A DNA stretch of 64,000 nucleotides from the NCBI RefSeq assembly GCF_054482595.1, contig NZ_CM137008.1; one strand, 5' to 3'. Positions 15,001 to 18,000 of the stretch are shown piece by piece (positions within the stretch are counted from its first letter, which is position 1; the number at the start of each line of letters is the position of its first letter). The position numbers were made by a program.

Positions 15001-18000
15001 GCCTTGTTGCTGGACTCTGTAGCGAACGATAAAGCTGCCCTGATTGCGAAATCTCGCGATACCTTTATTCGTCTGCTGAACGCCACCCCGAACGGTGTTA
15101 TCCGCAATTCCGACGTGGCAAAAGGTGTGGTCGAAACCTCCCTGAACGTCGGTGTGGTGACCATGACTGACAATAATGTAGAAATTCACTGCCTGATCCG
15201 TTCTCTGATCGACAGCGGTAAAGACTACGTGGTGAGCATGCTGGATTCGCTGGGTAAACTGGCTGGCGCGAAAACCGAAGCGAAAGGCGCATATCCTGGC
15301 TGGCAGCCGGACGCTAACTCTCCGGTGATGCATCTGGTACGTGAAACCTATCAGCGTCTGTTCAACAAGACGCCGAACATCCAGATTATCCACGCGGGCC
15401 TGGAATGTGGTCTGTTCAAAAAACCGTATCCGGAAATGGACATGGTTTCTATCGGGCCAACAATCACCGGTCCACACTCTCCGGATGAGCAAGTTCACAT
15501 CGAAAGCGTAGGTCATTACTGGACACTGCTGACTGAACTGCTGAAAGAAATTCCAGCGAAGTAATTATTTGATTTGCTGCCGGATGGCGTTTAATCGCCT
15601 TCCGGCAGTTTCATCCTTCATTATCCTTCGATAAAAGCCATCCCTGTAAACGTTCGTCGCGGGTTGCCACGTTCAATCTGGTGATGGAACATTCGCCGCT
15701 GCGATTTCAGCACTGCGCTATTTTCCTGTTGCTGTTGCTCCAGCTTCCAGGCAATCAGCAATCGTGCCAGCCGCTTGTTGGCATGCTGGCTGCGCTCTGA
15801 CTGAACCTTCACGCTAATCCAGGTAGCCAGATGCGTGGCGCGCGCCGCCGAATCGGTTTTATTGACATGTTGACCGCCCGGCCCCGACGAACGCAGCGTC
15901 TCATAACGGACCGCGTCGGATTGTTCCTGCTCATCAGCAGTAAAACGCCCAATGCCCAGAAACCAGTTTTTACGCCCATGATGTGGGCGATACGGACTCC
16001 GACAAATCCACTGAATAGTGCCATACCAGCTTTCGCTTAATGCCCATGCGTTGTCGCCATTCAGAGAAACCAGCGCTGAACGCAGGGTGTCAGAGTAACG
16101 ACCTGTTTCTGTTTCCAGCACTGTTACCGCGACGTCTTGTCGGGTAAAAACGACCAACAGAGAAGAACGCTGCGCCAATCGGGTAGCCGCGTCCGGGGTG
16201 TAAATCTGGCATCCCCACTACGCGCTGCATGTTGGGTAAATTTGCCGTGGTGTGTAATTGTTGGATCGCTAAACTCTCGATCCACAGGTCATCAGATGCG
16301 ATGGTAAATACCGCATCGGATAAGGGACGAATATATTTGCCCATGTACCATTCCATTTATACTCGTCATACTTCAAGTTGCATGTACTGCGACTACGTTC
16401 GTTCACCCCAGTCACTTACTTTAGTAAGCTCCTGGCGATTCACTCGCTTGTCACCTTCCTGCAACTCGAATTATTTAGAGTATATAAATATTAAAAATCA
16501 GGAAATGGCAGACGAATCCAGGGCAAGAAAAAAAGAATTAATCCTGGAAAGGTCTGCAAAGAGTCATTGATAAAGGATTTGTCATGATTTACCTCCTTGC
16601 AGTTTGTGGAATAAGAAAACGCGCACATACCAGGCGGGCGTTATTTTCATTGCAAGCTGGATTTAATGTTGCGGTTTATATCGCATAGAAAAATTAGTAA
16701 ACCACGCTCCCCGGCATTCAACGCGCTGCTGCTTAACTGTCTGAAAACCATAACGTTCAAAAAAGGGTTTGCGGTTATGCTTGCGTCCACCGTAAGTTCG
16801 GATTCAGACTTAATCAAAGGTTTTAACAAAGCGCTGGCAACCCCACGGCGGGTGTATTCAGGGTCAACAAATAACATATCGATATAATGTTCAATGCGGG
16901 AAATAAAACCAACCGGTTGTGCATTAATGACTGCAACCCGCACTTGTGATTTCGCGAGTTTCTCCTTCCAGCGAGATTCGTCAATCTGCGCCCAGGCGGC
17001 AATTTGTTGTGGTGAATAATGCTGACTTGCGGTCATCATAACCGCTCTAATGAAAATAGCGCATAGTTGCTGAAAATCGCCAGGCTGATAGTTTCTTATT
17101 TGTATGTTATTCATAATCCCAGCACCAGTTGTCTTTCCATTTGCGGGTCAAGCAACGTCACATGCAGCCCCACCAGACGCACACCTCGCCCGCCGCGGCG
17201 TTCATCCCAGGTTTTACGCGCGGTGGCGATTAAGTCAGCTTTATTCAGCCTCGGCCAGACGTGCTCCTGGGTGGTTTGCTGAAAATCGTCGAACTTTAAT
17301 TTCACCCCCTGGCGAGCAATCAGTAAATCAGGTTTTACCTTTGCCAGACGGCGTTCAAGTTCCGGATACAGCCGCTCGATAATCGCCTCACATTCAGACC
17401 AGTGATGAATATCTTCCGCCATCGTGCGTTCCACGCCGACGGATTTTCGCAACCGTTCGCTGTTAACATCGCGTTCGTCAATCCCCTGACTACGCTCCCA
17501 CAAAATGCGGCCAAATTTGCCAAAGCGTTTAAGCAGTATCACCAGATCACACTTTTGTACATCACCGCAGGTCCGCAGCCCCATCGCTTCCAGTTTTGCC
17601 GCCGAGACTTTGCCGACGCCGGGGATTTTTGCCAGTGATAAGGTTTGTAAAAATGCCGGAACTTCTGCCGGCGTAATCACAAACTGGCCGTTGGGTTTAT
17701 TCATGTCGGAGGCGATTTTGGCGAGAAACTTTACTGGTGCCACGCCCGCAGATGCCGTCAGTTGCAGCTCGTTGAAAATCGTCTGGCGGATTTCCTGGGC
17801 GATGAGGGTCGCAGAACCGTGGCAATGGACGCTGTCGGTGACATCGAGATAGGCTTCATCCAGTGACAACGGTTCAATGCGCGAGGTGTAGCGCGAGAAG
17901 ATTTCACGGATATGATTTGAGGCTTCTTTGTAGGCGTCAAAGCGCCCCGGAAGCAAGGTGAGATGTGGGCATAATTTGAGCGCCATCCCTGTCGGCATAG

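Follow-up and report, generated by a model that had tools for sequence, protein, structure and literature searches.

The window analyzed here, a stretch of DNA 64 kb in length, was assigned by sequence comparison to an Escherichia coli chromosome, and over its bases 1-19005 it matches strain XH990 at 99.98% identity. Genes in the region of interest run in the order gpt-pepD-prfH'-rtcB2'-yafP-dinB, and the features discussed below are collected in Table 1. Between pepD and yafP, an initial annotation had described an RtcB-like ORF of 88 codons overlapping, in another frame, a PrfH ORF that keeps its GGQ motif behind a non-canonical N terminus. Both ORFs are indeed present at those positions, in different frames and with an overlap of 89 nt (16090-16178), and the larger one contains the GGQ codons. 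In the 88-codon ORF, 4 spurious codons precede the 68 that belong to RtcB2, and prfH DNA in the wrong frame supplies the remaining 16. The 185-codon ORF is likewise composite and non-canonical at its N terminus, its first 11 codons, including the TTG start, being rtcB2 DNA read in the wrong frame.

Table 1. Features of the prfH'-rtcB2' locus and of other regions of the 64-kb window
Feature	Position	Strand	Basis or remark
gpt	13388-13846	-	
pepD	14107-15564	+	
prfH'-rtcB2' remnant locus	15621-16356	-	
prfH remnant (pseudogene)	15621-16142	-	TIGR03072, tblastn, PGAP in XH990, 7SA4 chain 8
Mechanical 185-codon ORF (PrfH side)	15621-16178	-	TTG start at 16178
GGQ motif codons (G120 G121 Q122)	15870-15878	-	Translation
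Mechanical 88-codon ORF (= K-12 ykfJ, b0235)	16090-16356	-	
Deletion junction, one repeat copy left	16138-16146	.	Alignment to L002, L003
rtcB2 remnant (pseudogene)	16141-16344	-	NF007153, tblastn, PGAP
ERIC (IRU) repeat, 127 bp	16358-16484	.	25-nt terminal inverted repeats 77 nt apart
yafP	16647-17114	-	
dinB	17111-18166	-	
Sel1-repeat protein	30344-31369		Type VI secretion cluster
Rhs protein	31473-35750		Type VI secretion cluster
VgrG	35826-37967		Type VI secretion cluster
Sheath protein TssC/VipB	40202-41677		Type VI secretion cluster
TssF	42101-43951		Type VI secretion cluster
ClpV	49775-51670		Type VI secretion cluster
TssM/IcmF	53846-57370		Type VI secretion cluster

The translated 185-codon ORF matched the NCBIfam family for PrfH (TIGR03072) with an E value of 2.1e-78 and a score of 262.5 bits, above the family cutoff of 166.65, with ORF residues 13-182 aligned to profile positions 31-200 of 200. 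It also matched Pfam RF-1 (PF00472) over the full domain (E = 5e-22). Its top match among solved structures was E. coli PrfH itself (7SA4 chain 8, E = 2.8e-111), covering chain residues 26-204 with 93% identity from about residue 31 to the end. Native PrfH sequence begins in this ORF at T31/R32, and the remnant holds native residues 32-204 together with the stop codon (15621-15623). The catalytic GGQ motif is retained, including Q122, the catalytic Gln mutated in previous work (PMC9304027), and the recognition residues Arg-83, His-85, His-86, and Arg-88 are also present. Its first 30 residues are missing, as are the start codon and the ribosome-binding site, and two features of PrfH are absent: the full N-terminal damage-recognition domain (residues 1-30) with its native start codon, and an intact upstream rtcB2 overlapping the gene, the 4-nt overlap having been deleted. 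PGAP labels the same coordinates in XH990 as "prfH, incomplete, missing N-terminus" and in O157:H7 also flags both remnant pieces as incomplete. A promoter scan of 15500-16750 returned no σ70-like site, a result that is neutral on expression, and a terminator scan of the same interval gave one terminator-like site, at chance level, inside prfH.

On the other side of the junction, the 88-residue translation matched the RtcB family profile NF007153 with an E value of 1e-30, ORF residues 5-73 aligning to positions 1-69 of 379, and the RtcB superfamily (PF01139) with an E value of 5.4e-5. It reached neither RtcB2 family cutoff (107 versus 407 bits for NF007153 and 100.1 versus 271.8 bits for TIGR03073). 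A tblastn search of the window with residues 1-69 of intact RtcB2 gave 98.6% identity. The RtcB-like fragment of the initial annotation is therefore real, but its native share is smaller than the 88 codons given there: the authentic start codon of rtcB2 is ATG 16344, corresponding to Met-5 of the ORF, and only native residues 1-68 of 379 are held. The native sequence ends at Tyr-67-Pro-68, directly before the conserved NDIGCG segment, and with residues 69-379 absent the ligase active site (the metal-binding Asp/Cys/His residues and the GMP-accepting His-294) is missing. PGAP labels this piece in XH990 "RtcB family protein, missing C-terminus". No solved structure was matched by the 88-residue fragment because it is too short and RtcB2-specific. 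For both ORFs the profile matches are far beyond chance.

To define the deletion, we aligned the locus with two intact rtcB2-prfH loci, those of E. coli 2011C-3911 (L002) and E. coli O6:K2:H1 C 691-04A (L003), in both of which rtcB2 (379 codons) and prfH (204 codons) overlap by 4 nt. Global alignment to either reference yielded a single gap of 1027 bp, in agreement with the earlier proposal of an internal deletion within an RtcB2-PrfH pair, and neither gene is full length. From rtcB2 the deletion takes the 3' 940 nt (residues 69-379), and prfH is left without its 5' 91 nt, which encode residues 1-30 and include the start codon. A length of 1027 bp is 3n+1, and rtcB2 codon 68 is therefore joined out of frame to prfH codon 31/32, and this out-of-frame fusion explains the odd shapes of the 88- and 185-codon ORFs. 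In the intact loci an imperfect 9-bp direct repeat, TG(T/C)CGGGTA, occurs at both ends of the gap, with the copy TGTCGGGTA on the prfH side and the copy TGCCGGGTA on the rtcB2 side; a single copy is left in the window, its perfect 6-bp part CGGGTA occupying 16141-16146. The deletion would have arisen by slippage or illegitimate recombination at this short repeat. No other copy of RtcB2 or PrfH was found in the 64-kb window by tblastn with the intact proteins, which detected only RtcB2 residues 1-69 and PrfH residues 26/31-204.

In MG1655 both pieces are annotated as pseudogenes, ykfJ (b0235, 267 nt) and prfH (b0236), between yafP and pepD. The alignment of K-12 with the window is gap-free across the junction, and we found in the window every feature that marks the K-12-type ykfJ/prfH deletion allele, namely the position between yafP and pepD, the 1027-bp deletion, and the 88-codon ykfJ ORF next to a truncated prfH. 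The window locus thus carries the same 1027-bp lesion as K-12, and that lesion is already known, a link to K-12 that the initial annotation did not make. Baranov et al. (2006) reported that K-12 prfH is N-terminally truncated and that, relative to CFT073, a deletion of ~1000 nt in K-12 MG1655, W3110, O157:H7 Sakai, and EDL933 takes in the C-terminal portion encoded by the upstream gene together with the N-terminal portion of RFH, any product of which would be without a central β-strand of domain 2 (PMC1586002). Tian et al. (2022) regarded RtcB2 and PrfH as presumably both inactive in K-12 (PMC9304027). With the junction placed to the base and the short repeat identified, the published "~1000 nt deletion" is now more precisely defined.

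What has been lost can be judged against the intact operon. Colicin E3 and CdiA-CT(ECL) cleave 16S rRNA between A1493 and G1494. In the 70S ribosome damaged in this way, PrfH binds in the A site and its GGQ domain releases the nascent peptide; once the subunits have split, RtcB2 uses GTP to reseal the 16S rRNA of the 30S subunit (PMC9304027). The 3'-phosphorylated A1493 is held in a pocket of PrfH formed by Arg-189, residues 9-12, Arg-83, His-86, and Arg-88, and His-294 is the residue that was mutated to inactivate the RtcB2 ligase (PMC9304027). The window locus is orthologous to the intact operon (ATCC25922, CFT073; 7SA4), with 93-99% identity in the retained DNA, but it is without RtcB2 residues 69-379, including the catalytic His-294, PrfH residues 1-30, and the translational coupling. 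The deletion took the whole RtcB2 active site, the 4-nt overlap, and part of the damage-recognition pocket of PrfH (residues 9-12). We take the locus to be non-functional because the catalytic residues of RtcB2, the pocket wall of PrfH, the start codon, and the coupling are gone, and it is almost certainly an inactivated rtcB2-prfH remnant, a pseudogene pair without repair function. In ATCC25922 the intact operon confers protection from colicin E3, and knock-outs of the remnants in BW25113 leave colicin E3 sensitivity unchanged (PMC9223846, 2022), a result that applies to the K-12 allele, a different strain and allele from that of the window. For the window's own strain we infer inactivity, with the K-12 experiments in support.

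The remnant remains homologous to the PrfH and RtcB2 families while failing the defining features of their functional members. The prfH piece shares the GGQ peptidyl-tRNA hydrolase domain (RF-1, PF00472) with ArfB (YaeJ) and with RF1/RF2, but it has neither the C-terminal tail of ArfB nor an intact RF domain 2, and it scores far under the family cutoffs of both. Similarly, the 68 N-terminal residues of the rtcB2 piece belong to the RtcB superfamily, as does RtcB1, the tRNA/RNA ligase of the rtcBA operon; unlike RtcB1, the piece is of the RtcB2 subfamily (TIGR03073, NF007153) and, at 18% of full length, it is without an active site.

An ERIC (IRU) element adjoins the rtcB2 remnant, 14 bp upstream of its ATG. 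Compared with what we take to be the ERIC core consensus, 16403-16443 shows 3 mismatches in 41 positions, where 0 matches were expected by chance. The presence of the element is independent of the deletion, because it is missing from the intact locus L003 and shortened in the intact locus L002. Beyond it, yafP directly follows dinB with the genes overlapping (16647-18166), and the yafN-yafO toxin-antitoxin pair, which in K-12 occupies 752 bp between dinB and yafP, is absent from the window, XH990, L002, and L003. Further along, at 18237-20843, the window is collinear with K-12, gap-free, and contains the K-12-type lafU'/lfhA' pseudogene pair, a relic left by loss of the Flag-2 lateral flagella cluster; XH990 keeps the full Flag-2 cluster, and the window departs from XH990 at 19005. 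A type VI secretion cluster extends from ~30300 to 58700, and K-12 is without it at the same position. On the far side of prfH, strain MRY15-131 (NZ_AP017620.1, L008), in which rtcB2-prfH is intact, carries genes for a metal-dependent hydrolase and a hypothetical protein between prfH and pepD.

To place the allele in the population, we searched 5426 complete E. coli genomes with a 120-bp query spanning the junction (coverage ≥ 80%). The junction was present in 2688 of the 5426 (61-mers gave 2688 and 2686), and the deleted 1027 bp was present in 2715, so that the deleted and intact states each account for about half of the collection. Strains S115 and 2900 (L006 and L007) have a second deletion, in which 169 bp, equivalent to 15783-15951 of the window, has been lost between ATGC repeats. 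This deletion, which is also 3n+1 and frameshifting, costs the prfH remnant its GGQ region, and the junction of the second deletion occurs in 660 of the 5426 genomes, about an eighth. Such continued decay is what one would expect of a pseudogene.

Within the deletion allele the window differs from K-12 on the prfH side. Its prfH part has 35 differences in 520 bases (7 amino acids), which fall between 15651 and 16140 (~7%), whereas the rtcB2 part is identical (0 of 198) and the flanks differ by ~1-2%; the divergent patch stops exactly at the deletion junction. The allele is rare and deep-branching, shared by only 16 of the 5426 genomes, with 16 records at ≥ 99% identity to the window prfH remnant and all other E. 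coli at ≤ 94.4%. Three-quarters of the prfH differences are synonymous (dS 0.24-0.28, dN/dS ~0.08), and therefore the divergence built up in a functional gene rather than by decay; accelerated decay of the pseudogene, considered as the cause of the 7% divergence, was rejected on the same ground. The changes private to the window branch, 3 synonymous and 4 nonsynonymous (D59N, C71Y, V131A, and G139W), fit a putative relaxation of constraint since inactivation. A scan of the GTDB species representatives with a degenerate 57-nt pattern of the GGQ region returned only four Escherichia loci, and the nearest relative of the window prfH was the intact prfH of Escherichia sp. E1V33, with 25 differences in 516 positions. 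The donor of the divergent allele was not found among the GTDB species representatives or the PLSDB plasmids, and PLSDB held nothing closer except one 100-kb "plasmid" with the same chromosomal block. Plasmid pHNAH212872-2 (NZ_CP104632.1, L009; 100 kb) carries the block crl-frsA-gpt-pepD-prfH'-rtcB2'-yafP-dinB-lafU-motA with the window-type allele, which may reflect a capture of the F-prime type or an assembly error.

The history of the allele turns on base 16140, the single mismatched position of the repeat, which is polymorphic for T and C across strains. The window and O157:H7 have T, the prfH-side form, and K-12, S115, and strain 2900 have C, the rtcB2-side form. Exact 61-mers assigned at least 367 records to the T type and at least 899 to the C type, which settles the split for only 367 + 899 of ~2690 records because neighboring SNPs break exact 61-mers; both forms are nevertheless common. 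We wondered whether the 1027-bp deletion might have arisen repeatedly at the same imperfect repeat, with the T and C types as separate events. The two junction bases, the frequency of each, and the 4-7% divergence on the prfH side among the window, O157:H7, and K-12 would all be accommodated by such a history. Against it, the rtcB2 side shows 0 of 198 differences among the window, K-12, and O157:H7, where intact alleles differ by 2-9, and the size of the deletion is identical in all alleles sampled. The base itself is also readily explained otherwise, since recombination with an intact donor would be expected to give a tract that stops at the heterology and carries in the T, and a C/T transition would be equally simple. 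Repeated origin is unlikely in our judgment but retains some probability. The simplest reading is a single ancient deletion, after which homologous recombination tracts from intact donors would have overwritten the prfH side; such tracts would halt at the 1027-bp heterology, bringing in T, and a tract of this kind would account for the divergent patch ending so abruptly at 16140. The identical rtcB2-side haplotype in all three deletion lineages lends this single-origin reading support. The divergent allele ending at the junction and the T/C base at 16140 are small additions to a lesion that has been described.

Some features of the prfH piece do count against the reading of a pseudogene. Its 173 native codons form an uninterrupted frame, the GGQ motif is intact, the RF-1 domain is fully covered, the dN/dS of ~0.08 between the window prfH and other alleles could, taken alone, be read as continued constraint, and in one record, that of pHNAH212872-2, PGAP names the 185-residue ORF as a real PrfH protein (WP_052463146.1). 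A reviewer of Baranov et al. had also suggested possible expression (PMC1586002). Conceivably, then, the truncated gene still works from an internal or fused start (TTG at 16178, or GTG at 16121 as annotated in K-12), yielding a GGQ protein with a rescue or hydrolase role independent of RtcB2. We consider this very improbable, given that residues 1-30, with part of the A1493 phosphate pocket and a central β-strand, are gone together with the native start codon and ribosome-binding site, and that the promoter scan, neutral as it is, adds nothing in favor of expression. Knock-out of the K-12 remnant had no colicin E3 phenotype, the second deletion has removed the GGQ motif in 660 genomes, the private changes look unconstrained, and intact alleles, which make up half of the population, account for the low dN/dS as the source of inherited or imported polymorphism. 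The chance that the structure is an assembly or sequencing artefact, or a pair of genuine short genes, is negligible; nothing beyond the existence of two short ORFs speaks for either, the identical junction recurs in 2688 independently assembled complete genomes, and each ORF has a tail or head taken out of frame from the other gene. The alignments to the intact loci and the recurrence of the junction refute both.

The deleted allele has been retained for long enough that it now includes prfH remnants 4-7% apart. The nearly equal split between deleted and intact alleles could reflect balancing selection between protection from toxins of the colicin E3/CdiA type and a cost of the operon, which we put forward as a speculative and rather improbable idea. 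Under such selection, tracts from intact donors could repeatedly overwrite the pseudogene, stopping each time at the deletion heterology. A residual function of the truncated GGQ protein itself is less likely than balancing selection.

Taken together, these data show the remnant to be ordinary and already described, the same lesion being present in roughly every second sequenced E. coli strain. The finding matters little beyond annotation, where both ORFs are to be treated as pseudogene fragments of one operon and not as genes. The population figures provide a simple presence/absence marker, with about half of the strains carrying the deletion and about an eighth the second deletion, and a strain with the deletion allele is predicted to be without the protection that RtcB2-PrfH provides from colicin E3-type cleavage of 16S rRNA.
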